A stretch of DNA of 63,886 nt, filler included, from Craspedostauros australis (taxonomy: Eukaryota): assembly GCA_030167865.1 (NCBI GenBank). It is 10 parts of 10 records of this genome, joined end to end, with 100 filler letters (N's around TTAATTAATTAA, not from the genome) between each part and the next. Parts side by side here need not be neighbours in the genome. Positions count along the whole stretch, not along the records: positions 19,912 to 42,404 come from JALAGF010001115.1; 9 more parts are not named here. The stretch is one strand, 5' to 3'. A model generated the notes under the pieces. It did not search any database, had not been told where the DNA came from, and worked only from the letters and a program-made list of their open reading frames with translations. Positions 5,026-63,886 of this stretch are shown here, piece after piece. The translations under genes were made by a program, and so were the position numbers. Every line of letters starts with the position of its first letter. Position 1 is the stretch's first letter.

Positions 5026-6656
5026 ATGACGGAGCCCAAAGCAGAGCCAACGGCAGAAGGGGCGACAGGAACGCCACCGCCATTCGCCAACACGTCGGGC
5101 AACGATGAGATCCCGTCGTTCAACGGCGATGCCAAGGCCAAGGCCACCGACTTTGCCAACTACTTCTGCTCTTACGCGCAGCTCTACCACCAAAAGCAGA
5201 TGCTTGCGGATCACAACCGCATGGCGGCCTACCATGCAGCCATTCTGGGCAACTCGGATGCCTTCAAGGACAAGGTCGTCATGGACGTCGGTACGGGTTC
5301 GGGCATCTTGGCGGTCTGGGCTGCTCAGGCTGGTGCCAGGAAGGTTTACGCAAGTGAGTTGCCCATTGCCTTCGTTGCTTCTGCTGCTGCTGCTGCTGGC
5401 ATCTGTTGTATTGATCGTAATGTACCATTATATAACATTATATATTGTATTTTATATTAGTATATATCGTATTGTGTTATACGTCACCGTCTCGCATTTG
5501 CTTCATCCCGTAAAATACTCACCGCAAAATCTCTCCCAACTCAACATGTGTACATACCACACGTCTCTCCTGCATTCATGTATCTCTCTCATCCATCTTC
5601 TTCTCTGTGACGCCACCACAATTTTCTCCATTCCTCTCTCTCTCTCTGGCTCTTGCGTTGTCTACCACACCCTCAGTCGAGTACACTGACATGGCAAAGC
5701 ATGCGGAGAAGGTCATGGAGGCCAACGGAGTTGGGGACATCGTCACCGTCATCCAAGGGGCCGTCGAAGAAATCGAGCTGCCCATGGAGAAGGACTCCTT
5801 GGAATCCGACAGCCCCGAAGATCACCCGCACCGCTGCGTCGATATCATCATCAGCGAATGGATGGGATACTTCCTCCTCCGCGAGAGCATGATGGACTCT
5901 CTCCTTCGTGCGAGAGACAAATTCTTGAAGCCGGCAACCGGCCTCATGTTCCCGTCACACACCACCATGTACATTGCGCCAGTACAAGATGACGAGGAGC
6001 GTCGAACGAACGGCACCGAATATGCCAACGCCATGTCCGACTGGAATGACTTCCAGGAAACCACCAAGCAGGTCTACGGCGTCGACATGTCCATCCTTCA
6101 AAAGGGCTTCGACAAGGAGCAGAAGGATTTCTACCTGTGGAGCTCAAGATGGACGGAGCTGCCACCGGAGGCCGTCCTGGCAGAACCAAAGGCCATCAAG
6201 CGGTACGACATGATGACATGCACCCTGCAGGAGGCCCGCGGCATCCCCGCCGATGACGGCCACAACGACTTCGATTTCTCCATCGATGGATCGACTACGG
6301 CCGGTCCAATCTCGGGGCTGGCCGGTTGGTTCACAGCGGACTTCCAAAGCCGCACGGATGAGGCCGGAGCAGCTGCGCCCAAGTTGTTGCAACCGGCCTT
6401 CCTGTCCACGGGGCCAGAAAATGGATACACACATTGGGGTCAGCAGACGTTTTACTTCCAATCCAGCATCCCCCTTCTCAAGGGCCAGACGACCCGCCTG
6501 AAGGGCGAGGTGGAGATGATGAGAACGAAGGAGAACTCGCGACTGTACAACTGCCGCATCGCCTACACCTCCTCGCGAAAGAAGAATGAAGCGGACAAGG
6601 ATGCGCCACCCTTGATGCAGAGCGAGCTGACGGAGCAAGTGTATCAGATCCCGTAA
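5026..6656 (+). CDS. Protein arginine N-methyltransferase, PRMT10-like; exons 5026-5353 and 5677-6656
   Basis: YFCSYAQLYHQKQML, motif I VMDVGTGSGILA, double-E loop VDIIISEWMGYFLLRESM and THW loop. Intron GTGAG(5354)...CAG(5676) restores YA-I-EY. The N-terminus resembles plant PRMT10. Confidence 0.93.
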
Positions 6657-7778: not shown

Positions 7779-10512
7779 TCATGGACGCGACCTCGGCCTG
7801 GACGAAGAGCGCTCGGCCTCTTCTTCCTGATCGATTGGCTGCGATGCCGCTGGTTCTGCCGACTGTGGCCGTGGTCGGCCAGATGGCTGAGGCCATTGTG
7901 GTCGTTCCCTGGAGTAATCCGCTTGGCTTCGCGAATGCGGGAGCGGCGGCATAGGGAAATGAGCCTCTGGCTGGATGTTCATCCTCTGATCTGACATTCC
8001 CGGCGGGGTGAACCCATGCGGCGAAGAAAACAATGACGATGGCATGCCGAAACTGCTGTTCGGTGACTGCAACGGCATGGACAGCAACGCCTGTTGGTGT
8101 GCGCCCGGCGAAGGAGGACGGTCGCGAGAGGGTTGGATCGTCCTATTCTCCGCGTGAGACTGGCCACCTTGCGCGCCTTGATCGCGCGGTGGCTGGAATG
8201 GATTCCCATCGGCACTTCTGGTCCGGAAAGGGGATTGAGTTCTATCACCCGGAGATCGGTGAGGTTCTCGGCCTCGAGAGTGTTCTCGATGACGCTGACC
8301 TTCATGGTGCGATGGAGGGTACGGCTCGGTACGTCTGTCATCCATGGGCGGAGGATGAGAGTACCCCTCGGGTCCATGATGCTCATGTTCACGGCCTGGT
8401 GTCGGCGGTGGTGGGTTATGAGCCTTGTCATGCGGTGGATGTCCACCATGCGGAGGCTGAGCACCATGCGGCGGCTGCGCATGATGGCGTGGATGGTGCG
8501 AATGATGATGTGACGGCGGTGGCGGGTAGTATCCCGAAGTTGGCGGTGGCGGCTGTGTTCCTCTGTATCCCGACGGTCCAGGTGGAGGTGGCGGTTGACC
8601 CCAGGCCGAGTCCTGGTAGTACGGATACCCCGGAGGTGGTGGTGGCGGCATGGATGGCGGTGGCCCGCCATGATCCCGTCCGTATGCTCTTGGCTTCTCG
8701 GATGGTCGGAACGAAGGTGAAGGTCGGCCGCCACCATACCCCGGCCCCCATTCGGGCGCATGCGGTGGTGGCGGTGACCGTTGCGGCATGCCCTCGAAGC
8801 GAGAATGCGGGTTCTGCATGTGCTGCTGCTGCTGCTGCTCTTCGTCGGCCCTTGGTCGTTGGCGACCGTGATGCGGATCGGCACGAGGGTAGCGGTGCGG
8901 AATTTCCCCTCCGGACCTTCCCTTGCCACCCTGACTGTCATCCTTCGGTTTGCCTTGCCCATGTTCGGGTGGTGCCGACGATGGCTTCGACGTGAACTCG
9001 CCTTGCTCCCTGCCGTGCCCGGCTGCCATGCGCTTCTCGTCAGCTGTTGGCTGGACAAGGTAGACATCAATTGGTTCGCCCTTGTTTGATCCACCGGATC
9101 CCCTGCCCGATGGATGTGCTCGTTCGCTGCCCTTGCTGCTGAGCGACATCTCGAACTTCTGCTGGCTCTCGACCCCTTGGACGCTGGGCACCTCCAGCGA
9201 GGTGCCCGATGGCGCGCGGATCCCGATCACGGTGTCCCTCCTGTAATCTGGCATGCCCGTGATGTCGTTGAACTTGATGTACATGTGATCAGCCACGTTT
9301 CCATGCATGCCCGGTGGCAAGTACGCGGCGCTGCTGCCTGTGGCTGGCTGCTTGCCACTGAACACCTCAGCTTGTTGCGAAAGATACTTGAGGTAGTTGT
9401 CAAGCTGCTTCTCTTCCTCCTTGAGCTTGGCCAGATGTGTCTGCATCTTCTTGTACTCTTCCTCGTTGGAGATATTGGTCGTCTTGTTGATACGTGGAGG
9501 GCTCCCAATCCCGTCGCTGCCCTTCTCCCTTCCCTTCACGGGTGTCGCCGGTGGACGAGTGATCGTTTCTGGTGGATCATCGTTCCATGACACATGGTTC
9601 TTCCCCTTCTTTACTAGCAACCCAATTCCCTCCAGCACATTCTGTCGCGGTGGTTGGGTTTGTGAACGGCGGTGAAGCCAATATACAAGTCGGTGTTGAT
9701 TGGCGGAACACAAGATGGATCAGAAAGGCACCGCGAGAGACGAAGCACAAAGCAGCGCGTTCACTTGTGACGAGTCACAACGTCGTTGGTGCCATGGATA
9801 CAACCAGGCCTGCAACAGGCGAAAACGCAAGCACAAGTCCAGCAAGACTGCAGATGCACGCGAATACGCCGACGTGCACAGGACAGTAAGAACTCACCGT
9901 GATATCGTAGATTCTGCGCTTCTGAACTCCCAAGGCCTTGGCGGCCTGGTTCAGATCGAGCGTGTTATCGACGGATGCTCGAAGTATTTGCACAAACTTC
10001 TTCGTCAAGATCCCCAAAGACGAATCGTATCTTGATTGGCTCGTCGTAGACGATGGCGTTCCCGATAGCCCAGCAGCCCCAGACTGTTTCGAACTCGCTG
10101 ACAGCGGAGGCGATCCTCGTGGGGAAGGTGCGAACATCGACCGTGGACCCCCTGTCGTTGGTGCAATAGGAGGCGGTGTTGCAAAGTGCCCATTCATGAA
10201 TAGGTTGCGTGGTGAGACATAGTTGCCGGGAGACATGGTCAAGAGCGATGAGTCCGAACCCGACATTGGCATTGATACGTGGATCGTTTTCAATGGCGTT
10301 TGATAGATCGATTCATTCGTCCCATCAACGTTCGCATGATGATGATCATCATGAAGGTCGATGTCGCCATGGTTGTGGTTGTGGTTGTGGTTGTGTTCAT
10401 GTTGGATATCATCATCGTCATTGGCAATGGCAATGGCAATTGCGTCCATGGTAACATCAGCGTCAGTTTCAGGGTCGTTACCAAAGTTAGAGATGCAACC
10501 GTCGTTTTCCAT
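7779..10512 (-). CDS. E2F: E2F transcription factor (winged-helix DBD, coiled coil, marked box, long P/H/Q-rich C-terminus); intron 9642-9897; start uncertain
   Basis: [14 protein letters not shown]...[21 protein letters not shown]...KNHVSW is joined by a GTGAG...CAG intron. Marked-box [13 protein letters not shown]...PIDVYLV. The start could be 10833, 10512 or an upstream exon at 12596. Confidence 0.92.
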
Positions 10513-11965
10513 GGTAAGGTTGGAGTCGGAATGATGCACGGGATGATGATTCGGAACGTTTGGGTTTTGGTTTTCGTTGGTTTCGTTGGTGGAGTAGGGT
10601 GACACGAGCGGAAGAGCCACATCAACACCATCAGCGCGATCAAGGTTGTGATTGTGGGGGTGGAGTCCATGGGAGATTGTGTCATCACGGCCATTCAATG
10701 GATGGAATGCAGGATTGATGTATCGTAGCGTGGGTGTGATCATGAAGCATGGTTGAGCATTGTATTGGAGTTGTTTTTGACGATACCATTTTGAGACAAA
10801 ATAGTCACGTCCGATGGGTGCCGATGAGTCCATTGATCAAGGATTGATTGAGAGGTAGCAAGATGTTATGGATGGATGGATGGATGAATAGGCGGCGATG
10901 ATGATTTGAGGAAGGAGACGGCGATGTTGTGGCATTCGCGACGGGCGGAATCACCAGATTCGATCAACATTGATGATTCGATTTGTGGATGCAACCAAAG
11001 ATCGATGTAGCATTTTCGTGGGATCGTGGGGTACGCCATATGACGCAATGATGAAGTGCATGATGCATGTTCCAATGATTGGGAACAAGCAGCGGTGTGC
11101 AATTATTGGTGAAAAAAGAGACGGAGTTGTGGGGAGAAGGAAGGAGGACTTTCGGTTAGTTCTGATGCAATCGATACATTAGCTGCGAGACTGCGAGATG
11201 GAGCAACAGCAAGCACAGCCTGACGAGCAAGATAGGCCGCCAGACCTTCAGGTGTCCGTGGATGAGGGTCGTCAAAGAGCGTCAACGGTAGAGGCGGCCG
11301 CATGGTCGAGTCGGCAAAGCTCGAACACGAGCTGGTTGTCTGTGCTCATCGCGCCTCAACGCTGTGGATGTCAGGCACCACCCGTTGCCGATGTCTTCAC
11401 GAGCACGCTGACGATGAATGGATGGGCTGTGGGCATTCGCTGCTTGGCGTTGGAGATTGCTGGCCGAGCGTTGGATGTGAGGAAGTGGGGATAGACCGTT
11501 GGGTTTGCCTCTGGGTGGATACTGGCAGACGCCGACGTGTGTGTTCTTGGCAGTTTGCCGAATTGTGTTGGTGTCGCGGATGAAGTTTTTGGCGCGAAAC
11601 CGCCCCGCTCGATGCTGCTTCCAAGAATTGTATAGGAATTTAACGGTCATCATAACGTCTCCGGACACATATAAGACCCGGAACCGAAACTGATGATGAA
11701 AGATCTTGGGCCCCGAATGCCTTGCTCCGGAATGTAAATCTTCAGCCATGAGGATCTGTATCGGCCTTGCCTCTCGTCACTTAGTGGTGAAGTCGTCGAA
11801 AAATTCGGTACTTAGGGCCCATCTCGTTTCCTTCATAGGGGCTCGGGAGATACCGCCAACTGATGCCATCTTCGGACATGAAGATGTGCACAACAAACAA
11901 CCGTTGGCGCAACGACACAGATTGCAAGTCAAAACACTGGGTGGAGATGCAGTTTGTGGGCTTAC

Positions 11966-15681: not shown

Positions 15682-16860
15682 GAGTCGTAGGGTGGGCGAA
15701 GAATGGAAAGAGCAATCATTCTGACCGGATGCGAGTACCTCAAGGGTGGACGTTCCACTCTGTCATATTCTGCATTATTCCCTTCCACGATGTCAGAGAC
15801 AGCGGCGACGGCAACTACTGCATCCCATACAAGATCGCATGAGTTGCGTCTGGCCATTCATGATTGCGCACGAGACCGCTCCTTGCAGGCATGAGGCCAT
15901 CATGCTTCGCTCTACTGAGCATTCCGATCAAACTGGAAACCATGAGACTCTGCGATTGGACAAACAAGTTGCGAGGTCGAATGACTGCGTGTCTCGCACA
16001 ACATTATCATGCACGAAAGCATCTTCACAACACGACGCGATTGCACTGTCGGAAGCGCAAAGCTCTACAATGTGAACGATGGTGACAACAAACCTTTGCG
16101 CATTTCTTAAGAGCAAACGGAGCAAGCTACCGCAACACGCATACTACAGTGATCTATTGTAAATAGTAACCTCGGGATCTGGACGTCAAATAACTCAACA
16201 TGCGTCCCAACATCTTCCTCTCTCCTCGCAGAGAGTCCAATGGTATTATTGTCGAAGCTGATGCCAAGCAGAAGTTGCCTCCACCAAGTCCGATAGTGTC
16301 ACGAGGTCTCACATGACAACAAATTGAGAGCTCGTTTGTGCCGAAGGACCCGCACAACGAAACAACGCGCCATTTCTCAACGCGAACACGAACAACAACA
16401 AAAACAAAGATGAAACCCGAACGAGAGACATCATGTCCCACAAGCCAACAACACTGTTGTGGATACTCCCCCGCCATTGATCCTCGAAGATCTGTTGCTG
16501 AAGGCGTACATGTATCATCATTATTGCAGAGGCGAACAGACCACCACAGGTCCGAACATCATTCTCAAATTTAGTTGCAGAGCAGCTGGAAAAGTGGTCA
16601 ACGCTGCCTGGAGTCGAGCAACCCCTCGCTTCGACAAGACTGAGCAAGGTGCAAACGACGACACAGAGACCATCTTGGTGAAGGCGAAGATTCGACACGC
16701 ACGCAAGCCACTACTAGTAATGCATCGCTCGCACGTGTACTATTATAACATATCGTAGTCCAGAGACAGAGTCGCATCATTGCTCCCCAAGTCTCTCGCC
16801 AATCTTCCATCATCTTGTTTGGAGGGAGACAATCAGAGACTCATCACGGCTAGCACCATC

Positions 16861-17142
16861 ATGTTGGTTCAAAGCATCCGGGCAAGCATGGGCGTACAGC
16901 GCACTATCATCAGTCTCCACCATGGACGTGTTGGACGTGTTGGACGTGTTGGGCGTGTTGGACGTGTTGGATTGGGTGCGTGCATGCGCACAAAAGCGAG
17001 GCGAGAATCTATGCACAGATCCCGATCGGCTGTCTCCACGATTTACTCCAACAACGCCCCAGCAACGTCACACGAGCGCAACCTTCCTGCGCTGATACGG
17101 CCACCGTTGTCCAAAACAACAAGCGTTCCATCGAACTACCAG

Positions 17143-17176
<34 letters not shown>

Positions 17177-19038
17177 TGGAATGCCATCAGCCGCTCCATC
17201 TCAACGTCGACCATGGCTGTGCTCTCTTGCTACCGCATCTGCAGCCGAATCCTCACCCATCAGCACATGCAAGCGATGTCCATGTCACCAAACCCGCGCC
17301 TTCCGACCTCTCCACATCCATGCGCGCGATCAGCGTGGACGCTCAACTCAAAACGAAGCTTGTCACTCTTGCAAATGGCCTTCTTGCGCACCATCGAGGG
17401 GACTACGGAAGACTTCGGCGCTTCTCAACAGGCGGTGACAAAGCCTCTTCCTCACGCTCATCATTGCAATCACCATCGCAACCACCATCGAAGTCAAGGC
17501 AGTCGCTTGGTGCCATGGCACCTGCGGCCAACCAATCCATTGACGATAAAAACAACGGCCAGGAGCCAGCTGGCACCGACAGCACCACCGACAAGGTGAA
17601 CCCAAACTCACAACTACGAAGAACCAAGACCATCACTGTGCTCAACAGTTCAGCTTCCAAAGAGAGGATCAAGAGACAAGTCAGGGCCAACCGAAAGAAC
17701 AAGATCTCGGTGCCCAACTACGGCCCCGATGCCGACCGCGCATTCCAATCGCTGCAGAACGCGCGCAAGGAACGGGCCAGGGCAAAGACGGCCGCCAACG
17801 TCCGCAGGGCGCTCTACGGCAACGCCTTCATCTGCGCTGCCAAGCTAGGCGCGTGGCTCTCGTCCGGCAGTTCCAGCATGATGTCGGAGTTCGTGCACAG
17901 CGTCGTGGACTGCGGTAACCAATCCCTCCTTCTCATGGGCCTCAGGGATTCGCGCAACGCTGCCGATCGGTTGCATCCCTACGGATACGGAAAGTCCATC
18001 TACTTCTGGGCCTTGGTCAGCGCCTTGGGCACCTTCTTCCTCGGCGCCGGCGTTTCCATGAGCCATTCCATCCAGGCGCTCATGGCTCCGACCTTGGAAG
18101 ACATCTCGTGGCATATCTGGGGCGTCCTCGGCGTCAGCTTCGCCGTCGATGGATACGTCCTTGCCAAGACGGTGTCCGAGATCTCGGAGGAAAAGCCGCC
18201 GCACATCAGCCTCATGGACCACATCTGGAAGATACGAGATCCCGCAACGCTGGCGATCCTTCTGGAGGACGGAGCAGCGTGCCTGGGGATCCTCATCGCG
18301 ATCGGAGGCATCTCGGCTTCCCACGTCACCAGCATGCCCATATTCGATGGCATCGCGGGCGTCGGCATCTCCTGTCTCCTGGGTGCCATGGGCCTCATGC
18401 TGGTCCGCGTCAACCACAGCTTCCTGCTGGGCCAAGGCGTCGACAAGGAGATCCGCGACGGCATCGAGAAGATCATCCTGGATCGACGCAGCATCGACAA
18501 CGTCTACTCCATCCAGTCCCAGTGGACCGGCCCCGAAACCTTCTCCTTCAAGGCCGAGGTCGACTTTGACGGGACCTTCCTGGCCGCCCAGCTCATGTCG
18601 CGGTACCAGGGAGAATTCAGCCGCGCGCACAAGGAGCTCGATCAGGAACTCGAGGTCCTGCTGTGCTGGTACGCCGAGGACGTCATGCGCGCCGTCGAAC
18701 GCGAAGTGCGCCACATCGAGGCCAAGATCCGCCAGAAGTATCCCGGCGCGGAGTACATCGAGCTGGAGCCCATGAGCAAGGATGCCGACAAGTTCGCGAT
18801 CGACGATTCCTTCGAGGAGAAGCTGCAGGCCATTGAACGCAAGGAGATGCAGAGCTTGGTGCGCGTGCTGTACGAGAACGCGGGCAAGACGAGCCTCGAT
18901 GACCCGCAGACGGTGCCCATGGAATCCGAGGGCGTGCCCATGCCCACATCCGTGATCGATTTTGAAAAGTCCGTCAAGGAGGCGTCGTCGTTGCCGTCAT
19001 CGTTGTCGCCCAATCCAAAAGATGTCAAGAAAAAATGA
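16861..19038 (+). CDS. Cation diffusion facilitator, ZnT9/SLC30A9/MTP7-like metal transporter (start codon uncertain)
   Basis: RALYGNAFICAAKLGAW...SEFVHSVVDCGNQ...HPYGYGK...LLEDGAA...FKAEVDFDG...YIELEP. Long low-complexity N-terminus with (GRV)4 and polyQ. Confidence 0.9.
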
Positions 19039-22569: not shown

Positions 22570-23969
22570 TGTGATGGTGATCGATCCTTCTACTCCAAAC
22601 CAACGCTGCACTCCAATGCTATTCCGTTGCGTCGTTGCGTCTGTCTCTCCTGTCGATGCTCGTTGGTGACCGTAACGATCTACTTCATGCTCTGGATTCT
22701 GGGAAACCTCCGGACTCAGAACGATCACCAACACCACCAACGCCACCAACGCCAGACAGTATCCGCGGCACATCCTCACCACCGAATCCTTGATGTTGTT
22801 GGATGGGTTGTGTTGGTGTCATTCGTATCTTTTCAATATCTTCTTGCGTTCGTTAGTCTTGATGTTGAAGGACGAACCTGTCCGTCAACGTGACATTCCG
22901 TGTTGAATTGGTGCAGAATGAGTTTTCGAACACTTTACGAACGACAGAGAACTCCTTCGAACGAAAAGAACAATCATGATTGGAAAACTCGTGATTCGAC
23001 GGTCGACTCGATTGGTTGTGAGAAAGGAACTTCAACCTCGACTGTGGGAAGGAATTTCGCTTTCGTTTGGATGGTGCGACATGCGTAGATTTTTGTACTA
23101 AGTATACTGAGATTCACTCCGCTTCAACAGGAACAGAGATTCCTTGAGCCGGCTTGATTCGATGAACCATGACGTACTTTTTCTTGCAGTTGTTTGGTTT
23201 GCTGATTGGTGTCTGAGTTGTGATTGACTCATGATGTCGATGGGGGTTGAGCTTCGGTGACACGATACGATTCAGTGGCTGTGGGGAATCTTCGTCCATC
23301 AGAGCGCGTTTCGTTTGCGGTGGAGGAGTTCGTTTCTCTTCGTGTCTGTGTTGCGCCGTTTTTTTCTCGGAGAGTCCGGGTTTCAGCTGTTCATCGTGGT
23401 GGATTCATCGCGCTAAATGTTCGATTGATCACGTAAGAGGTCCGTCTCGCGATACGCCGTGCTGTATCGTGTTGGATGCAAACCTGGTTGAAGTCAGCAA
23501 AACGTGAAAAGTGAACCATTTGCTGTGCCGCGAACCGTGCAAGTACAGACAGCAGTACCTGTGCGTAGCAAGTATACGTGAAGCAACTGCACTGCCCACC
23601 ACCCACCCACCAACAAACACAAAATCCCAATCAACCACACAAGATCAACGCCCACATCCACGCAAGCCGCAGCATCAGCATCAGCATAAAACAACCAGAG
23701 CGGTTGCGATCAAGATCGGCATCAACATCAACAAGGACACCCAACGCCCATAAAACCAACAGCATCAACAACATCGGCAACACCAAAGAAGAAAGGAAAG
23801 GAGAGACACGTCGCAAGTGAGATCCAAAGCAATCCAATTCAAAGGAAAGCAAAGGAAAGCAAAGGAAACGAACAAACGGAGAGAAAGATCCGAGAACGGC
23901 AGAACACAAACGCACGAACACAGACAGGAACATCAGAACCCAAATCAAAGCCAAATATCATCCCTCACC

Positions 23970-24995
23970 ATGACGACCATCATGCAACCGCAGATCACGC
24001 CGATTGCGTTCACCTCACAGATCCTCAGCCAAGACACAAGCGCAGTGACTGCACCGGTGGGCATGACTTCGATGGAAGCAAGAAACCGCAGCTGTGACAT
24101 CATGTTGACTCAGCACAACGACGCAACAAGCACCGCCACGACAGCACCAGTAGTCGTGCCAGACAGCGCTGCTTCGTGCACAACTTCGCCTACTGCCACC
24201 ACCATCACCACAGCAGCCACAGCAGCCACAACAGTCACAGCAGCCACAACAGTCACAACCACCACCACTACTGCCACCGCAACAACCACCACAGCTGGAC
24301 CAGCACGAAAACGCACGAAAACTTCAGGATCGAGCGCGGCAACCAGCAAGAAAGCCAAGAAGCCGCAGATGAGATACGACCCCGACGTGCCGATGACCAA
24401 GGAGCAGGCCGCCGTCTGGCGTCGCGAACAGCGCAGGAAGCGCAACCGGGAGAGCGCGGCCGCGTCCCGCCAGAAGCAGCGCGATCGCATCACCGAACTC
24501 GAAGTCGAGATCAACGGTTACCAGACCAAGCACTCCTCCATCATGGCCAGGATTCAAGAATTGGAGCGCATCGCCGCCGCCAAGCAGATCACCATCACAT
24601 CCACCACCGAGACTCCGGCTGCCACAGACACCGACACCACTCCTTCCATCACTGTCATGCAGCCAGAATGCGTCACTGATGACGAAGCATCCCGTGCTGG
24701 TCGACACTCTGACGCCAGCAGCATCTCCGCCGATGCCACCGCATGTCCGCACACGACCGCACCAGCTTCGCCTGGACCGGCGTTCGTGCCTTCCTCGCTT
24801 CCCGTTGCAGTCTCACCCATTCCGTCTAACGTTGACTTTCTTGATTTCTCCCACACGCACATGCCACAGACACAGACACAACAAGAGCAGAAGCTCAGCC
24901 TTCTGGATGAGGTCAACGTTGCCATCCCAAGCACACACCAATTGAACATGGATCAGCCACCACTAAGGATTATCTCACGACAAGCTACGTCATGA
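23970..24995 (+). CDS. bZIP transcription factor, unspliced form (341 aa); HAC1/XBP1/bZIP60-like candidate
   Basis: Basic region and zipper WRREQRRKRNRESAAASRQKQRDRITELEVEINGYQTKHSSIMARIQEL. ACCATG start at 23970 after an A/C-rich leader. Confidence 0.92.
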   Translation: MTTIMQPQITPIAFTSQILSQDTSAVTAPVGMTSMEARNRSCDIMLTQHNDATSTATTAPVVVPDSAASCTTSPTATTITTAATAATTVTAATTVTTTTTTATATTTTAGPARKRTKTSGSSAATSKKAKKPQMRYDPDVPMTKEQAAVWRREQRRKRNRESAAASRQKQRDRITELEVEINGYQTKHSSIMARIQELERIAAAKQITITSTTETPAATDTDTTPSITVMQPECVTDDEASRAGRHSDASSISADATACPHTTAPASPGPAFVPSSLPVAVSPIPSNVDFLDFSHTHMPQTQTQQEQKLSLLDEVNVAIPSTHQLNMDQPPLRIISRQATS

Positions 24996-25539
24996 ATCAA
25001 CCAATCAACCATTCAAACAAACACACATACACACACACCAATCCAAACCAGTCAGCACCCACCATCCAACAAAGCCTGACTGCCGTACCCATCGTCGTCG
25101 ATGATTGGGTGAGATCGAGGTCACAAACCGACGAGACTTGGTCGCCGCCGCGCCCAATGGACATTTGATGCCAAGAGAGTACTCAGCAGCAGCTTCAACG
25201 CTCTGCGGTCTCTCGCTATTGGCTTCTCCCCCCGCAACACTGTCGGTGGCATGCATGCACACGCACGCATGCCACCATCGCACAGTTTGCTCTAATTACG
25301 TTCCGGTTCTAGCGATAGAATGACAGCGACGTCCCGTCCATCCGGCATCAAACCCGGCCGCGCCAAGTCCAGTCGCCTTTGTCCGACCAACCATCGAGCA
25401 CAATCATCGACGACAACAAACCGTCCAGATGACGAAACGAAAGTCGCTGCATCATGCGCTCCATCATTCAAAGATGGAGCAATCGATTGCTCGGCAACTC
25501 GTGTCATCGCTTCAACGACATTTAAGATCACCATTCCAG
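24985..25539 (+). other. Putative non-spliceosomal (IRE1-type) intron, 555 nt, highly structured
   Basis: Both junctions lie in 7-nt hairpin loops (AAG|CTAC and CAG|CAGT). No phase-compatible GT/GC donor near the end of the bZIP ORF. Nested internal inverted repeats; removal joins the frames. Confidence 0.65.
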
Positions 25540-25814
25540 CAGTGAAGATCAACGGTGCTGTTTCCACTAGTTCAATCGGTGTCTCGGACCCACAAGCGCA
25601 ACTACAACTGAGCAGTCAGTTGTCCGTCCTCAACCAGCCAGAGCCCTGCCTGTCGTCGTCATCGTCGCCGGCCGTGCAAACGGATATCAAGTTGGAACCT
25701 CTGGACACATCCCTCTTCCAGCCCAAGGTCGAGCCACTCCCGTCCCTCCTCGCGGATGTGGAATCGGAGGATGACTTCGGTGAGTTCCTGTTGGACGCCG
25801 TTCAATGGTTGTAA
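25540..25814 (+). CDS. Second coding exon of the bZIP gene (acidic/hydrophobic activation-like tail); spliced product 429 aa
   Basis: Same frame as the bZIP ORF. Reads AVKINGAVSTSS...IKLEPLD...KVEPLP...VESEDDFGEFLLDAVQWL*. Confidence 0.7.
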
Positions 25815-26506
25815 GCCATCAACGGCTTGCGTGCATTTGCATGCAATCGCAGAGCTGCACGCGCAGAAGAAGTCGCGTACGGTACATACCATAGTACACA
25901 GCATAGCACGGGGTCTACCGCCGTTATGAGTGCGACAGACCACACAGTTGCGCAGCTGTGCACTTTACTCATCCGATCGGCACGACCAATGGCCGGATGC
26001 AGGGCAGAGAACTCCATTTTGGATCACCACGTCCGCCGTGCCACATGTTGCCCACAAGGGAACACGTACACATCAGGAGACGGCAGCAGCTGCAGCAGTA
26101 CTTCTCTACGAGTACATCTGCTCCACTGCTCAGCCGACAACTCCTTCCATTCATTTCAGTAAAAGCTATTGTAGGAACTCAAACAGTATTAGGGAAAACG
26201 TATCATCATTCATCGCTAAAAGACCTGTTGTGGACTTGTGGAAGTCTATGCTTGAGAGTGTAGAGATCATCAAGTTTGAATTTTGGCGCGAAATTTGTGC
26301 GTTCGCGGAACTCGAGTTTCGGCCATGGATCATGAGGATTTTGTCGCCCCACAACATGCCGACAACACAAACACTCTTGTTCGTCCATTGCGTCCCACTG
26401 ATCTGTTGAAAGCAACACCATACTCGCAATCGTATCATACACCAATAATCGTGGGACAATCACCGCATCCTTGATCTCAACCGCTACGCCCGTCGAGCAC
26501 AGGACG

Positions 26507-31178: not shown

Positions 31179-31863
31179 GATGTCAATCGAAATTCAATGT
31201 ATGAATGGATTCTATTATATTATAATGGTATAGTACGAGTTATGTATCCTACTATATTCCCTTGCTCTGTGTACCATACGATCTATGGGAGAGGTGGAGA
31301 GTACGGACTGTGCACCGTGCACCGTGTGCTGTGCTCATTGGTGATTGGCGTTCGTGGAACTTGGTGATGGATTGGTTGGTGTTTACGATCTTTTGGAGAT
31401 TTCGGTGGACGAACTGAATGATTGGCTGATTCGACTCAAAGGACTCATACTCCCTTGCGAACAACAACAACCACGACTGCTCCGGCGCCAACAAAATGAG
31501 AAATCCAAATACCAAGCCCCAAAACGCAACACAACAAGAGAGGGAGGAAGGAACATCTTCGGCCACCAACGATCTGCGCGGATGCATCACTGTTGTTCAT
31601 TCATGTGATGGCCACAATCCCTCGCAGAAGTTGCACTCTCCACGACCTTCCAACCACTTCTTCTGCCTTGCGAGTACCCAAACACCAACACCCACACCAA
31701 CACCCACACTCGTACTTCTATTCAAAGCATACGAGGAGTCGTCCTGTTGTCTTCTCTCCTCTGCTCAACACTACATCAAGTACTCTAACTTGAGTATACG
31801 CATGCTCGTGTACTCACAGACCACGCACCACGAAGACGCACCTTCGTACAGAGCCTCAGCATC

Positions 31864-33504
31864 ATGGAACAGTTACTGGACGAGGCGGACGCGTTGGTTC
31901 TGACGGGCGGAGAGGAGATGCAGCCCAAACGACCCGACTTTGACATTCCGGAAGAGTTTGCCAGATTCACGGAACCGCACGATCTGCTGGTGTTGCAGGA
32001 CAGCCGGAGTGGAGGCAAGGGGTGGCATGCCAAGCGCAACGTGCCAGCGGGATCCATGCTCATGATCGCCAAACCCCTCACGTTGGCCTTGGATTGGGAA
32101 TGGGATCCGGACATAGAAGACCCCATCATCAGCAACAACGGAATGGATGAAGAGTACGGTGAAGCTGAAGCTGAGGTCGGCGAAGGTCACGATGATGGAA
32201 ATGATGCGAGCGAGAATTCCGAAGATTCCATGCCGGAACCAGCGGAATCGCAGATCAATGAACTTCTGGTGCTGCAGCTGCTGCAGGACATCTCCGTGGA
32301 CCCATCGATATGGACGGACAAGGTCACCAACCTGTACCCTCGGGATCCTGCCGACATCCAGGCATCACCGGTTTGGGTATCGAAGGACGATGAGATATTC
32401 ACGCAGTTCGAAGCGCTGGTGAAGCAATGCGAGCAACATCCTGCGCTGAGGGGCAAGGCGAAGGAAATATCTCAGCGCCTGCCGCTCATCGTTCGCTACA
32501 ACGTGCTTTCCATTGAGACATGTCCCGAGATGCTCAGCTACCCCGGCCCCACCGGTCATAGTGGCTTGCAGGGCGTTGGCCTGTACCACCTGCCCTCCTT
32601 CTTCAATCACAATGCGCGTCCCAATGTGTCGCGGTACGCCATCGGCGATGTTATGTGGTTCGTGGCCAATCAGGACATACCGGCAGGGACGGAGACGTGC
32701 ATCAGCTACCTCGAGCACGACATCCTTTGCGAGTCGGCCTACCGGCGCAACCTCGTCCTCACGTTGGACTTCAAGGAAGATGAAGCGCAGGATCAAATGC
32801 GCATGGCGGATGGTACGATTGGCAGCGCTCCGAAAGGTGGGCCTGACATGCCAGTCGTGGACAGCGATGTGCAGAACGAGCTCATGATGATGTCGCCCTT
32901 CGAGCGTCTGGAATCCATCGAGCAGCTGATGGCGCAGGCCTCAGGTGAGGCGCTTCCGGAAGACGAAGCGAACGCTGCTGGCACTGATGCTGATGCTGAT
33001 GGGATGGAGATCATGGACGGTGATGCGCAAGGAGGGGCACATACACAGGCGACCACGAGTAGTCAGATTTCACCGCTTCAGCCGGCTTGGTTTCAGTGCG
33101 ATTTGCAAAACCTTCGTATCCTCAAGGCAATCACCCTGGACGCGATGGGCCTGTCACACCGCGCCATCGAGCTTTGGAACCAGTGCATCGCATTCACCGA
33201 AGCCAAGATGCCACCCAACGACGAGGCCTCGATCGTCATGAGAGTCCAAGGCGCACTCTGCGCTCTGCACATGAAGGACGAGGCACAGGCAAGGCAGCAC
33301 GCCACAGTGGCATTGCAGCGGCATCACTTGATGTTCGGTGGCGGGATCCGACGGTTCCGCAGGCGTTTCCAGACAGAATTCTGCCTCGCCCTGAGGCCAT
33401 CGCCGGTTGCAGGAAGCGGTGGTAGCAGCGACAATCCTTTGACGAACCAGAATGGCGAGGCCGTCACGCCCCACGACTTCTTGTGGCCACTTGGTTCAGA
33501 GTGA
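31864..33504 (+). CDS. SET-domain lysine methyltransferase, split-SET (SMYD-like) with helical C-terminal region
   Basis: GGKGWHAKRNVPAGSMLMIAKP (S-sequence), GLYHLPSFFNHNARPNV and ANQDIPAGTETCISYL. Confidence 0.88.
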   Translation: MEQLLDEADALVLTGGEEMQPKRPDFDIPEEFARFTEPHDLLVLQDSRSGGKGWHAKRNVPAGSMLMIAKPLTLALDWEWDPDIEDPIISNNGMDEEYGEAEAEVGEGHDDGNDASENSEDSMPEPAESQINELLVLQLLQDISVDPSIWTDKVTNLYPRDPADIQASPVWVSKDDEIFTQFEALVKQCEQHPALRGKAKEISQRLPLIVRYNVLSIETCPEMLSYPGPTGHSGLQGVGLYHLPSFFNHNARPNVSRYAIGDVMWFVANQDIPAGTETCISYLEHDILCESAYRRNLVLTLDFKEDEAQDQMRMADGTIGSAPKGGPDMPVVDSDVQNELMMMSPFERLESIEQLMAQASGEALPEDEANAAGTDADADGMEIMDGDAQGGAHTQATTSSQISPLQPAWFQCDLQNLRILKAITLDAMGLSHRAIELWNQCIAFTEAKMPPNDEASIVMRVQGALCALHMKDEAQARQHATVALQRHHLMFGGGIRRFRRRFQTEFCLALRPSPVAGSGGSSDNPLTNQNGEAVTPHDFLWPLGSE

Positions 33505-37334: not shown

Positions 37335-40300
37335 ATGACCCGCGATCAGCAGCCATCGTCGGGGGCGGCCCGTCGCAACAGGAACCGCCAGAATGGCAAC
37401 GGTGGAGGACGCAGCAACGGCCGCAACAATGGCAACAACGAGGATTACTACGATGATGCGCAGAGCGTCCGTTCGCGATCGACCCGCCCCAACGTGATGG
37501 ACGACGATGACTTCTCCGTGGCGCCGTCCATGGAGCAGGATGTCAGGGCGGTCCGCTCCGTCAAATTCGACGATGTGTACAAACGAGGACGGAAGGTGCG
37601 TCGTATACCTGCATATCCGTGTCCATGTGCATGTTGGACATGCGCATGTTGAACATGTACGATTCCGTGGCATGTTGCAATGATCTCGACAGTGCTGGGA
37701 ATGACTGACAATGCATGGCACAGCATCGTCGAATCTACAGCGTGGGTTCTGTGCCGTCCATGAAACGCATCAGCATTCCGATGCAAGCCTTCTTCGGAAT
37801 CTGAATCCGCTGCTTGATTGCCCGCCGTTGAGTTGTCGTGCAACTTGCATCTCATTTGTTGGCGCATCCTTACCGTGACGGTGCTGCATCGACCTCCCAT
37901 GACCACATCACAAGCTTACCACCTGCCACTTGCCTCATTTGTATTCGTATCCGTATCCGTATCCGTATTCGTGTTGGGGATTGAATACGATGACGGCCGA
38001 TCGAACGCCGTCACCATCAACAACCGCAACAAACGACGACAAACAATGACAACAACCCGTCACCGTTCCCAGCTTGGATTGGGTGCATTCGCAGTTGTGT
38101 TCATCGGAACGCATCGGCCCACAAACTCAGAGTACGCGGTGAAGCAGATCGACCGCTCCACGATGTACTGGAATGATCGCGATGCCTTGCAGGATGAGAT
38201 TGCCAATCTCAAGCTCACCAGAGAGGGACCCAACATCGTGCAGCTCTACGAAGTGTACGAAGAGAAGGCGTTTTGCTACCTCGTCATGGAACTCATGGAG
38301 GGCGGCGAGCTCATGGAGTACATCGTCGAGAAGAAGGCTTTCACAGAGCGCGAGGCCCGCGACTGCTCGCGCTGCGTCCTCAGCGCTCTCAAGTACATGC
38401 ACGAAAAGCACGTGGCGCATCGTGACATCAAACCAGAAAATCTTCTGTTGTCGGAGCAGAACAACCTCAGCAGCATCAAGCTGGCTGATTTCAGTTTCGC
38501 AAAGTTCGTCAGCGAGCGCAACGGATGCCGAACACTCTGCGGAACCCCAGGATACCTCGCGCCGGAGATGCTGGAAGATTTCCCAGCCTACGATGTCAAA
38601 TGCGACGTCTGGTCCGTCGGTTGTCTCCTGTACCTCCTGCTCTGTGGATACCTCCCGTTCGACGATGGTGACGACGACGTGATCTTCGAGCAGACGCGGA
38701 ATGGTCAGTTCGACTTCCCTCAAGAATTCTGGCAAGGCGTCAGCAAGGGTGCGAAGGACTTGATCATCAAAATGCTCACCATCAACGCCAAGAAGCGTAT
38801 CTCGGCATCCGTGGCCTTGCGCTCCAACTGGGTGCAGCACGGTGACAAGGTATCGGAAGAACGCCAAGTCAGACAGAAGAAGCTTAAACTCATCATCGAA
38901 GCCAAGACCAAGATGAAGAGGGCCATCACGACGGTGCGTACAATAGCAGCGACACTATTTCCTGCAATCGCACCCTGGTTTGGCTCTGATTTGTACGGCA
39001 TGCCATGTTCTACGCCATTGCGTAGGAATCGATGCTCCACGTATCTGTCCCCAAACACTCATCTCTCTTTTCTCGCTCTGCCTTGTTGTCTCTCTTTTCT
39101 TTTCCATCCTATCCTATTTGTTCTGTTGATGCAAATGTGTACCTACTTGCCCATCGAACCAACGCTCGGACGCTCCTTCATTTGTGGCGATGCGTGCGCA
39201 GGTGATCACGGCCAATCGAGTCACAGCACTGAACCAAGCCTTCAGCGAGTTCGCAAGCAAGAAAAAGGACGAATCCGTCAGCCAGAAGCTGAAGAAGAAG
39301 GAGAAGGAGCGTTTTGTGGAGGACAGTCTAACTGGAGCTCCCTTCGACGAGTTTTACGAAATCGGTGCAGAGCTCGGCGAGGGTGGTTATGCCTTTGTGT
39401 ACCAGTGCACGCACAAGAGAACCCAAAAGTCGTACGCCGTCAAGGAGGTCATCTTGTCACGCCTGGAGAATGGTGGCGAATCCACGCTGAAGGATGAAAT
39501 CGATGCGCTGAAGATGCTCAGAGGTGGTCCCCACATTGTGCGTCTCTACGATGTCTTCATGGAGGCCGACCACTGCTTCATGGTGATGGAGGAAATGAAG
39601 GGAGGCGATCTCCTCTCGCGTATCGTCGACAAGGAAGTGTATACGGAGCGCGAGGCCAGATCCGTGTGCAAGATCCTCTTCCAGGCCGTGGACTACTGTC
39701 ACCAAAAGCACATCGCGCATCGAGACATCAAACCAGAAAATCTCCTCCTTGTGCACGCCGACGATGACACGAGCATCAAGATTGCTGACTTTGGTTTCGC
39801 AAAGAAGGTCACCGGCGTGAATTCTCTGAGCACACTGTGCGGTACGGCCCAGTACGTCGCTCCCGAAGTTCTGGATTGCCAGGTGGATGGGTACGATCAG
39901 ATGTGCGACATGTGGTCTGTCGGTGTCGTGACCTACATTTTGCTTGGAGGTTACGCGCCGTTCGAAGGACCTCCAGACGAGCTGGCCCAGTTCATCATCC
40001 GTGGAGATTACGAGTTCCATGAAAGGTACTGGAGCGAGATCACGCAAGCCGCCAAGGACATGATCACGGCTATGCTGCAAGTGGATCCAGGCCGACGTCT
40101 CAGTGCCGAAGAGGCCCTCCACTGCGAATGGATGGCGCTGGATGCCGGCGCCTTGGCCGCCACCGACCTGAGAGGAACCAGAGACCAGATGCGCGACTCG
40201 ATTGCCGATCCGGAGGCCGCCAAGAAGACGAAGAACGCCATCATCGCCACCAACAAGTTCTTCTCGCTCGGCGCAATGACGAGCGGACTGCTGGTTGGCA

Positions 40301-41558
40301 ACAGACAAAGCAGCACCGGGCACGAAGAGCCAGAATTCGACTTTGAGGATCTGTACGACTGGGGCAAGCAAATTGGCATCGGCACATTCTCCGTTATTCA
40401 CAGATCCGTCCATCGAGAAACCAACGAAGTGTCCGCCGTCAAGCGTGTGGCGCGTGTCGATCTGTGGGAAGAGGACGCCATGGCGCTTCAGAACGAAATC
40501 TCCTCTCTGCGTTTGGTCGCAGATTGCGAATACGTCGTGAGACTGCACGAGGTGTTCGAGGAACCTGACTTCACCTACATGGTGCTCGAAGAACTGATGG
40601 GCGGATACCTGATCGACAAGATCATCGAGAAGGAGCATTACGACGAAGACGAAGGACGAGAAGTGTGCTTCCGTCTCATTTCAGGATTGGCACACTGTCA
40701 TAAGAAACGGATTGCGATCCGTGACTTGAAGCCGGAGAACATCCTGTTGGTAAGTGGATGAATGCTTGTGCAGTGTGTGATGCTGAATGCATGTATGCCT
40801 CTGTTCGGTCTGCGTGGAATGCATGCGCAAACCAAACGGGTTGAGTTGATTGCTCCTTGTCGCGCACTCTGCCGTGCATTGCCATGCATTGGACGACCGG
40901 AGCCATATGAATGGCTGTTGATGAATAGCATTCCATTTCACACTGTGTGGCTAACACTGTGGCCCTTCCCTCCATCCATCTTCCTTTTTTCCTTGCTTTC
41001 TGGATTTGCACGCATGTTTATTTCCAACCATTGCTGGGATGTATCATCGGCACGGATTCTCCTGCGTCGATGCCCACAAAACGTATCGAAATGTATCGAA
41101 ACGAAACGAAACGGAATGAGCAGATGAAGAACAGCTACATAGACGTCAAGATCAGCGATTTCGGGTACGCCAAGAAGGTGCACAATCCAAATACGCTGAC
41201 CACGGTCTGTGGTACCGAAGGTTTCGTCGCGCCAGAAATCATCGAGCACAGTCCGGAGTACGACATCGAGTGCGATATGTGGAGTTTGGGAGTTGTCATT
41301 TTCATCATCCTCGGTGGCTACAGACCGTTCCGTGGAGAAGGCGAGGCCTGTTTGGAGAATATCCGATACGGAAAGTATAAGTTCCACAAGAGGTACTGGT
41401 CGGATGTTTCGGAGGAGGCCAAGGACTTGATCCGCAATATGCTTGTCGTCGACCCTGCCAGCCGAATCAAGGCAGAGGAGGCGTTGCAGGCACCATGGAT
41501 CACGATGTCAGAGTCCGAAGAGGAGTACCAAGCACCACCGAGAAATCGAAGGCGTTAA
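37335..41558 (+). CDS. CaMK-group Ser/Thr kinase with three tandem kinase domains; exons 37335-37595, 38073-38933, 39202-40749, 41124-41558 (1034 aa)
   Basis: Three motif sets: LGLGAFA/AVK/HRDIKPEN/DFS/APE, LGEGGYA/AVK/HRDIKPEN/DFG/APE and IGIGTFS/AVK/IRDLKPEN/DFG/APE. Three phase-0 GT-AG introns join them. Confidence 0.9.
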
Positions 41559-61854: not shown

Positions 61855-62636
61855 TTACCGCATACATAGTCACACATACTACCATGCTCTTGCTTGTACG
61901 CCGCCAGCATTTTCCTCTTTTTTGTTGTCAAAGCCAGGCACTCAATGACGTACGCTCTAGCTTCGCTTGTCTCTTCTACACAATCTGAGTCACTAATCGA
62001 GTCAAGAATACTGCTGTGTTGCCAAATGTCTCATTGTTGTTGTTGTTGTTGTCATTAGAGCCTAAACGGAATGGCTGTGGTCTTTGTTGGCTGTGTGAGC
62101 TGTATGGCAGAGGCTTGATTGCAAGCTGTCTGAACAAGTATCTTCTGTTCCACAAGTACTATGCTCCTCAGATCCAACTGACTGCAACTCGTCTCGATTC
62201 CCTCATTGGCTATGACAACCACATTGTTGTCATGGTCATAGCGTGGATATCCGACCCACTTCAAATCAAGTAAGGTAATTCGATGGTGACTTCCAACCAC
62301 AGCCGCTGTTGTATTCTCAACTCCAATAAAGTGATGAGCTGCTATGTTCTATGCTACAATGCAACAACACCAAGAGAGATGAACAAGAGCAAGGAGCAAT
62401 GTCTGCCCTCAACACTGAACCATGTGGATCAGTGCAGAGCCGCATTAACTGTGTGGCATCATTTCTTCATCCTACCAAGACTACTAACTAATTCATAACA
62501 TACAAACTGAGTTTAGCACAAATCACTACTCTACTCNNNNNNNNNNNNNNNNNNNNNNNNNNNNNNNNNNNNNNNNNNNNTTAATTAATTAANNNNNNNN
62601 NNNNNNNNNNNNNNNNNNNNNNNNNNNNNNNNNNNN

Positions 62637-63886
62637 TGCTGTCTCCGTCCACGTTGCACCCCTGAGGTACTTGCATGAAGATGTCGCATTCCACATCCGC
62701 TTGCGGGAACGCCAGAACGAAGTCGATTTGGCGAGTGTGCCANNNNNNNNNNNNNNNNNNNNNNNNNNNNNNNNNNNNNNNNNNNNNNNNNNNNNNNNNN
62801 NNNNNNNNNNNNNNNNNNNNGACACCATATTGTTGCTCTCCTCCATGCACGCATAGCCGTGCTTTCCACTTGTAGATTTCGCCGGTTGCGAGTCTGCGTT
62901 TGCGCTTGAATGACCAGACGGCTTTCAGGATCTTGTGCCCTTTTGGCACTTGATTGCGTTGCACGACCTCCCAATGCTGTCTGGACTGGTGGTCTTCGAT
63001 CTCCTTGTGCATTGCCTCGATGAATTTGTCACGGTCGTTCTGCTTCTGCATTTGCCCCCAGTACATGGTGTCGTCGTCTGCGAGTGTTGCCGCGAATGAC
63101 ATGGGGTGCAGGTCGCCGGAGTTCATGTTGAGGATGTCGGATGCATGGAAGGATCGAGCTGTGTGCGTGTGGTATGATTGGAGTTGGAGTGTAAGCTGGT
63201 TGGTCTCTGCACGTTCTGTTGCGGATGGAGCGGATCGTGATGCGTTCTGTGTGGCGATGGCGTGTGTAGGTGTAGCTCCCTCTGAAGGTGAGCTTGCTGG
63301 TTGTCTCGGAAGACTTTGCCTTGGAAGGCTGTGCCCCGGAAGGCTGGACCTCGGAAGGCTGTGCCTCGGAAGGCTGTGCCCCGGAAGGCTGGACCTCGGA
63401 AGGCTTTGCAACTTGTGCTGCATGTCAAGCTGGAATGGCTTGGCGTCAGGTGCAGCGTGTGTGATCCCCGGAGGACGTGTGCTTGCGGAAAGCTGGTGCT
63501 GAACAGCATGTGTGATGCGTTCGGAGCGCATCTGCTGTGAGGGCTTGGCTGGTTCGTCGATGTGCGTGAGACGCTGCCACTGTGATGCGCCAGGACGCAT
63601 TAGCGGGTTGGTCTTGACTGTTTGGAACCTGTCGTCGAAGTTCAGATGGAACTGTGGCGATATGTACCCTGTGTCGATCTTGAGAACGATAGGTACGCTG
63701 CTCGCATGTTCAGCTGACATGCCAAGGAAGATGGCAATGTTGGCGCGGCTGCTCCACTTGGGAACCTGAGATCCCTGTTGGAGTGCGGCCTTGAGGATGT
63801 AGACAGGGCATCCAAATGTGTGAAAGTGTTGCATTGAGGGTCGGACCTCGATCTGCGCGAATCGCTGGAGTGGCGATATACCTCCC
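62637..63886 (-). mobile_element. Ty1/copia (CoDi-type) pol fragment: integrase C-terminus and reverse transcriptase N-terminus
   Basis: HTFGCPVYIL...ISPQFHLNFDDRF, then AVWSFKRKR...YKWKARLCVHGG and TRQIDFVLAFPQA...IFMQVPQG. Confidence 0.95.

Follow-up and report, generated by a model that had tools for sequence, protein, structure and literature searches.

A diatom bZIP mRNA with a candidate IRE1-type, non-spliceosomal intron whose removal adds a conserved C-terminal tail

We analysed a 63,886-nucleotide (nt) stretch of DNA from the Craspedostauros australis assembly GCA_030167865.1 (the window), with a focus on a bZIP gene whose mRNA may undergo non-spliceosomal splicing of the type described for HAC1, XBP1 and bZIP60. 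The gene lies on the plus strand of the part drawn from JALAGF010001115.1 (positions 19,912–42,404). Its unspliced open reading frame (ORF) runs from an ATG at 23970 to a TGA at 24993–24995 and encodes 341 amino acids (aa) ending in RIISRQATS. Residues 150–200 (approximately 24417–24569) form the bZIP domain, with Pfam matches to bZIP_1 (E 7.1e-07) and bZIP_2 (E 2.2e-05) that exceed the curated cut-offs; a PDB profile search returned no match at E<=0.01. The N-terminal half of the protein contains a long Thr/Ala-rich low-complexity run (24180–24300, including TTITTAATAATTVTAATTVTTTTTTATATTTTAG) that is not in the homologue consensus, and a short tandem repeat of AAAGGAAAGC-like units, skipped as repetitive when reads were mapped, occupies 23825–23876 in the likely 5' leader. 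Further downstream, a stop-to-stop frame of 172 aa (25296–25814) lies in the same frame as the bZIP ORF and terminates in DDFGEFLLDAVQWL followed by the stop. Excision of 24985–25539 (555 nt) fuses the two frames at RQA-VKI into a 429-aa protein. The coding part of exon 1 would thus span 23970–24984, from the ATG to the G that opens the Ala-339 codon, and that of exon 2 25540–25814, reading (A)VKINGAV through to EDDFGEFLLDAVQWL with the stop codon at 25812–25814; the 3' untranslated region (25815–26198, plus strand throughout) extends to a likely poly(A) site. A first-pass annotation, made from the window sequence alone, had proposed this arrangement, and our reading of the ORFs reproduced its coordinates: the bZIP ORF ending ISRQATS at 24995, the orphan downstream frame ending in phase at 25814, and the gain from 341 to 429 aa upon removal of 555 nt.

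Both ends of the intron can be drawn as hairpins with 7-nt loops, in which the G^C step (the caret marks the inferred cut) follows the third loop position, in agreement with the first-pass description. The 5' splice-site hairpin (24975–24995, plus strand) pairs TCACGAC (24975–24981) with GTCATGA (24989–24995), with one C.A mismatch, around the loop AAGCTAC (24982–24988). The cut is inferred between 24984 and 24985, and the stop codon of the unspliced frame (24993–24995) lies inside the 3' arm of the hairpin. The 3' splice-site element (25526–25550, plus strand) comprises GATC (25526–25529), a bulge ACCA, TTC (25534–25536), the loop CAGCAGT (25537–25543), GAA (25544–25546) and a second GATC (25547–25550), with the cut inferred between 25539 and 25540. 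The trinucleotide AGC is common to both junctions, and the intron can therefore be written in equivalent registers from 24983–25537 through 24986–25540. The possible ends are AG..CC, GC..CA, CT..AG and TA..GC, none of them spliceosomal. Taken alone, the two window hairpins have fold z-scores of −0.79 and −1.17, not above chance, and 651 GT/GC-AG pairs in the window would also leave a frame open; one such pair, GT 24989 with AG 25312, had been overlooked in the first-pass annotation. A single sequence could therefore not decide the matter, and the support for the intron comes from comparison with other diatom sequences and from a contig of Craspedostauros that starts at 25538. The placement at 24985–25539 (plus strand, 555 nt in the G^C register) was taken from spliced homologues with the join SR[PQH]A-VKI and from 21 spliced contigs, both described below.

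With the 341-aa ORF as query, 396 homologues were retrieved at E<=1e-3, and the best 120 of them were examined; those named include sequences from Seminavis, Nitzschia and Chaetoceros and an MMETSP record whose label begins 'Syned'. High conservation is confined to the bZIP core, apart from a short C-terminal motif, [KN]M[IT]SR[PQH]A. Counted as the pattern [ITMN]S[RL]xA within the last 60 residues, this motif is present in 107 of the best 120 homologues; 46 of these 107 end exactly at the motif and 42 two residues beyond it. Nine of the 13 remaining homologues instead bear a tail ending in E[FL]GEFLLDAVQWL. The join was inspected in eight of the nine (P0098 excluded) and reads SR[PQH]A-VKI or FRPA-VKI in all eight, which bears out the junction SR[PQ]A-VK predicted for diatom orthologues. 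In blastp comparisons of the tail frame with the C-termini, E fell to 5.6e-17 (P0104 and P0030, approximately 6e-17). For eight of the nine tail bearers the alignment begins at residues 77–89 of the 172-aa frame, around VKI, whereas P0098 aligned over residues 2–172 with 32% identity. Some records, for example P0052/P0056 and P0088/P0077, resemble two forms of one gene. A search for the tail among longer proteins, too weak to map its distribution, gave two matches at E<=1e-3, both bZIP proteins.

To extend the comparison to nucleotide level, metagenome contigs were scanned with an alignment of 20 proteins and 80 loci (L001–L080) were kept. They were classed by motif patterns, in which the coding letters are partly fixed by selection and the intron letters are not, as 41 unspliced (two ORFs, separated by 217–512 nt), 21 spliced and 18 unclassifiable (contig cut short or motif absent). 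All 21 spliced contigs read CGAC[CA][AT]G^CAGTGAAGATC with an uninterrupted ORF through to the tail. The tail is conserved as protein and joined in frame to the bZIP ORF in eight proteins and 21 contigs, amounting to an exchange of the C-terminus. Two isoform pairs represent the same gene with and without the intron, L049/L051 (flanks 99.9% and 100% identical, intron 457 nt) and L069/L076 (flanks 100% identical, intron 341 nt). Three nucleotides are common to the junctions in both exact pairs, giving four registers (GC..CA, CA..AG, AT or AA..GC, and TC or AC..CA); GT-AG, GC-AG or AT-AC ends were found in none of the registers of either pair. Four further spliced/unspliced pairs at 87–93% identity agree. 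The pair L023/L030 (93%) does not show that a locus ending CCCG^ is itself spliced. The unspliced form is also seen as a polyadenylated species: the last 8 bases of unspliced L038 are an A-run absent from genomic L040 (5200–5280), which continues TTTTGAC, and this non-templated run indicates that the intron-containing mRNA was polyadenylated. A-run ends occur in two of 28 unspliced contigs shorter than 3 kb and in none of the 21 spliced contigs.

Site comparisons were made on 37 distinct unspliced sequences, the window included. Intron length varies from 217 to 555 nt, the window intron being the longest, and is spread over the three classes modulo 3 (12/14/11). Both inferred cuts nonetheless follow the first codon base in two independently located frames. 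The introns terminate in AG in 28 loci, CG in five, TG in two and GG in two.

The 5' site is marked by a strong stem. We folded −30 to +30 around each site with RNAfold, using the other GC dinucleotides of the same loci as background. In 34 of the 37 loci the minimum-energy fold places the 5' cut after the third position of a 7-nt hairpin loop, an arrangement shared by only 7 of 3277 background positions. The median closing-pair probability is 0.95; the window hairpin is present in its own minimum-energy fold at 0.98. The consensus reads TCT[C/A/T]GAC-[C/A][A/T]G^CA-N-[A/C]-GTC-N-[A/T]GA, with an invariant G^C and A at +2 in 35 of 37 loci, the window alone having T there. When a 12-pair model of this hairpin was evaluated on 33 of the 37 sequences (28 distinct rows), 71.4% of cells were paired, compared with 26–40% when the model was slid along the alignment. 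The model scores 0.132 for covariation and shuffles 0.066, and none of 500 shuffles equalled the observed value, although related sequences can beat shuffles without any structure. One exchange, T-A to A-T at pair 14–30, is found in the window sequence. The stop codon of the unspliced frame lies within or adjoining the 5' loop, with the conserved KMISR[PQ]A peptide upstream of it; the frame stops 0 codons past the Ala in 14 of 37 loci and two codons past it in another 14, together 28 of 37. Conservation of KMISR[PQ]A before the stop could reflect a constraint from the RNA stem or a nascent-peptide signal.

The 3' site reads CATTCC-N-G^CAGTGAAGATC, and positions −8 to +11 are near-invariant, with only −2 varying (A 28, C 5, T 2, G 2). 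The loop is C-N-G^C-A-G-T in all 37 loci and in every one matches the published IRE1 motif CNG^CAGN. On the intron side TTCC and an upstream GATC are conserved with a spacer of 0–5 nt between them, which fits a bulged stem made of GATC/GATC plus TTC/GAA. Where the bulge is a single base, the hairpin lies 0.1–0.6 kcal from the optimum; forcing the loop costs a median of about 3 kcal, a rough figure as the constraint was incompletely enforced. Covariation of the hairpins, which the first-pass annotation had proposed as a check among orthologues, was seen at the 5' site and not at the invariant 3' site. In these folding models the two sites are asymmetric, the 5' one combining a strong stem with a relaxed loop and the 3' one a perfect loop with a marginal stem. 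We also observed that AAGATCA flanks the 3' cut on both sides, in the intron and in exon 2 (25524–25552), and that a TGATCT in the 5' exon of most loci can pair with either copy (in the window TTATCT, 24969–24976, with one mismatch); judged from these complementarities, an exon-exon helix adjoining both hairpins is possible.

Within the window intron, a perfect 14-nt inverted repeat (25094–25107 with 25401–25414, plus strand; GTCGTCGATGATTG and CAATCATCGACGAC, 100% complementary) could fold the long intron and bring the splice sites nearer to each other. A near-perfect palindrome is also present at 25245–25276 (GGTGGCATGCATGC and GCACGCATGCCACC) and underlies a sub-threshold Rfam match to atpB. 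Pairing between intron and 5' untranslated region of the kind known for HAC1 was sought in the window, and the best candidate, 16 nt at 75%, is not convincing.

Indirect transcript evidence from Craspedostauros itself comes from a public run (X1) that consists of contigs, whose RNA type is a guess. One contig of 661 nt (depth 27.9) covers exactly 25538–26198 with no differences. The unspliced (TTCC^AGCAGTG) and the predicted spliced (GACA^AGCAGTG) paths converge at position 25538, their first shared base, and with both forms present a de Bruijn assembly would break its contig at this point. At its other end the contig stops on the final A of GGGAAAA, beyond which the genome continues with C, so that 26198 is likely a poly(A) site. 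A second X1 contig matches only the 53-nt bZIP basic region (24355–24407), with seven differences and unlike flanks, and by its sequence probably derives from a paralogous bZIP gene of the same organism.

Sequence comparison shows that, across diatom-like sequences, an intron without spliceosomal ends is removed at the predicted place and joins the bZIP ORF to a conserved acidic-hydrophobic tail. Our preferred explanation, to which we assign a probability of about 75%, is processing of a diatom bZIP mRNA by cytoplasmic splicing of the HAC1/XBP1/bZIP60 (IRE1) type. Under this explanation the unspliced mRNA would encode the 341-aa bZIP protein, stopping just past the conserved ISRQA. An endonuclease, most likely IRE1, would cut after the G in the two 7-nt loops (24984^24985 and 25539^25540), the 555-nt intron would be discarded and the exons ligated. 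The spliced mRNA would then encode the 429-aa protein with an added conserved 90-aa tail, which ends in an acidic-hydrophobic motif and on that account is probably an activation domain. IRE1 is present in diatoms. With regard to the first-pass proposal of an IRE1-spliced bZIP factor, the non-spliceosomal intron at the predicted place and the conserved tail hold, while the involvement of IRE1, endoplasmic reticulum (ER) stress as the trigger and an exon ligase (RtcB or Trl1) are putative.

Several observations weigh against this explanation. The 5' loop departs from CNG^CAGN in that −3 is occupied by C in 22 loci and by A in the other 15, and +3 by T (18 loci), A (13), G (three) or C (three); the caveat of the first-pass annotation about these two positions is therefore genuine and general, and the window loop, AAG^CTAC, is the most deviant of the 37. 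The 3' hairpin consists of no more than a 3-bp closing stem and the bulged GATC/GATC, and it appears in the minimum-energy fold of none of the 37 loci (median closing-pair probability 0.01). Its stem is paired in 98.2% of cells (33 of 37 sequences) without covariation, both strands being invariant. The 3' end of the intron, with CTAAGATC followed by CATTCCAG^, also looks like a branch point with a pyrimidine-rich stretch and a CAG acceptor. In Rfam no family came near its gathering score, the best being the unrelated atpB on the minus strand (E 0.11). No IRE1 gene was found within the 63,886-nt window. Lastly, neither exon 1 nor the intron is covered by an X1 contig, a gap that proves nothing, and spliced reads of the window gene were not seen.

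The resemblance at the 3' end leads to the alternative of a spliceosomal intron with unusual ends, in the CA..AG register, with the conserved CTAAG as branch point and CATTCCAG as pyrimidine tract and acceptor. Introns ending TTCCAG^ in 28 of 37 loci, the conserved CTAAGATC some 14–20 nt upstream of the 3' cut, and polyadenylated intron-retaining RNA, which is also seen with ordinary introns, would all suit it. The absence of any GT-AG, GC-AG or AT-AC register in the two exact isoform pairs speaks against it, as do the nine of 37 introns that end in CG, TG or GG rather than AG. The conserved GT at +5/+6 cannot yield the observed mRNA, since the spliced contigs lack the four intervening bases. 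The annotated Seminavis, Nitzschia and Chaetoceros proteins stop at the motif, which fits gene models that missed the intron. We consider a spliceosomal origin unlikely. Quite unlikely, too, is mRNA splicing by a nuclease other than IRE1 together with a ligase, be it a tRNA-splicing-type enzyme or some unknown nuclease. The lack of G at +3 of the 5' loop in 34 of 37 loci and the weak 3' stem would favour such an enzyme, but both cuts are G^C steps between positions 3 and 4 of 7-nt loops, with a 3' loop that is CNG^CAGN in every locus, and the predicted cuts fall in hairpin loops rather than in the two 3-nt bulges of a bulge-helix-bulge motif. Moreover, a bZIP gene that gains a new tail is a known type of IRE1 target.

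A canonical intron confined to the window, from GT 24989 to AG 25312 (324 nt), would keep the frame open through a good-looking acceptor, TTCCGGTTCTAG^, and give a 506-aa protein that retains all of 25313–25814. Similarity to the tail begins near VKI (residues 77–89) in eight of nine hits and not at 25313, the X1 contig begins at 25538 and not close to 25313, and the would-be donor GTCATG belongs to the conserved 5' stem present in every locus, which together make this intron very improbable. We give even less credence to the idea that the spliced forms are artefacts of reverse-transcriptase template switching or of assembly at the common GCA, with the tail ORF a separate gene or a chance frame. 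The 3-nt microhomology at the join is compatible with such an origin, as is the absence from X1 of directly seen spliced reads for the window gene. Yet the identical join recurs in 21 spliced contigs from diverged genes and in eight protein records, the tail shows conservation at the protein level and is in every case in frame with the bZIP ORF despite intron lengths that vary modulo 3, and the intron-side bases are conserved at both sites.

The proposed IRE1-type splicing of the diatom mRNA can be compared with several known systems. As in yeast HAC1, a bZIP gene has a long intron with an in-frame stop soon past the 5' site and acquires a new C-terminal tail by splicing. Unlike in HAC1, the diatom window has no convincing pairing between intron and 5' untranslated region, the unspliced ORF ends at the cut or two codons past it in 28 of 37 loci, and G at +3 of the 5' loop is missing from 34. 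The XBP1 intron of animals is 26 nt long and acts by frameshift, whereas the diatom introns measure 217–555 nt and may be of any length modulo 3. The likeness to XBP1 lies in the two candidate stem-loops and in the 7-nt loop CNG^CAGN cut at G^C, to which the 3' loop of all 37 diatom loci conforms; a difference is that XBP1 needs stable stems and the diatom 3' stem is marginal.

The published IRE1 motif is a 7-nt loop, CNG^CAGN, cleaved after its third position, and XBP1 has two stem-loop motifs whose stems must be energetically stable (PMC8674358); yeast HAC1 introns measure 19 to approximately 850 nt, with hairpins at both boundaries (PMC6222058). For photosynthetic eukaryotes, splicing of Chlamydomonas CrbZIP1 by CrIRE1 (PMC13545648) and activation of plant bZIP60 through IRE1-mediated unconventional splicing (PMC3216516, PMC12781897) have been reported, with a bZIP60 intron of 23 nt (PMC12781897). 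The diatom gene resembles these two in encoding a bZIP factor of a photosynthetic eukaryote, and differs from bZIP60 in its longer introns and its stramenopile lineage. Some heterokont bZIPs have been grouped with the HAC1 and ATF6 families in a paper whose available part is silent on splicing (PMC4736632), and a kelp transcript is annotated as ERN1/IRE1 (PMC6742357). The first-pass annotation knew of no such branch in stramenopiles, and our full-text literature search likewise found no such target mRNA reported in diatoms or any stramenopile, with a mention in Hooks and Griffiths-Jones 2011 possible; in PMC4891664 terms for diatom, stramenopile or alga occur 0 times.

Elsewhere in the window lie genes for a PRMT (5514–6653), a cation-efflux protein (16759–19035) and a SET-domain protein (31789–33501). 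A further set of neighbours, listed at 7782–10836 (minus strand), 37818–40758 (plus) and 62584–63885 (minus), includes an E2F/DP factor split over two ORFs (E2F_TDP and E2F_CC-MB), which probably has an ordinary intron, two protein-kinase ORFs in overlapping frames, and a copia-type reverse-transcriptase fragment at the window end (62584–63885, minus strand).

We also entertained a more specific proposal, in which diatom IRE1 would use the asymmetric sites as they are and a ribosome stopping or pausing at KMISR[PQ]A-stop would gate cleavage or carry the mRNA to the ER. We regard it as speculative and rather doubtful; if true, ribosome gating would couple translation to splicing in a manner unlike HAC1 and XBP1. 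Should IRE1-type splicing of this mRNA be correct, the relaxed 5' loop would widen the known range of IRE1 substrates, and the Seminavis, Nitzschia and Chaetoceros protein records derived from genomes would represent the unspliced form only. The exact junction could be used to track ER stress by PCR or RNA-seq, both in cultures and in ocean metatranscriptomes, and the bZIP protein would be the transcription factor so far lacking from the ER-stress response of diatoms.

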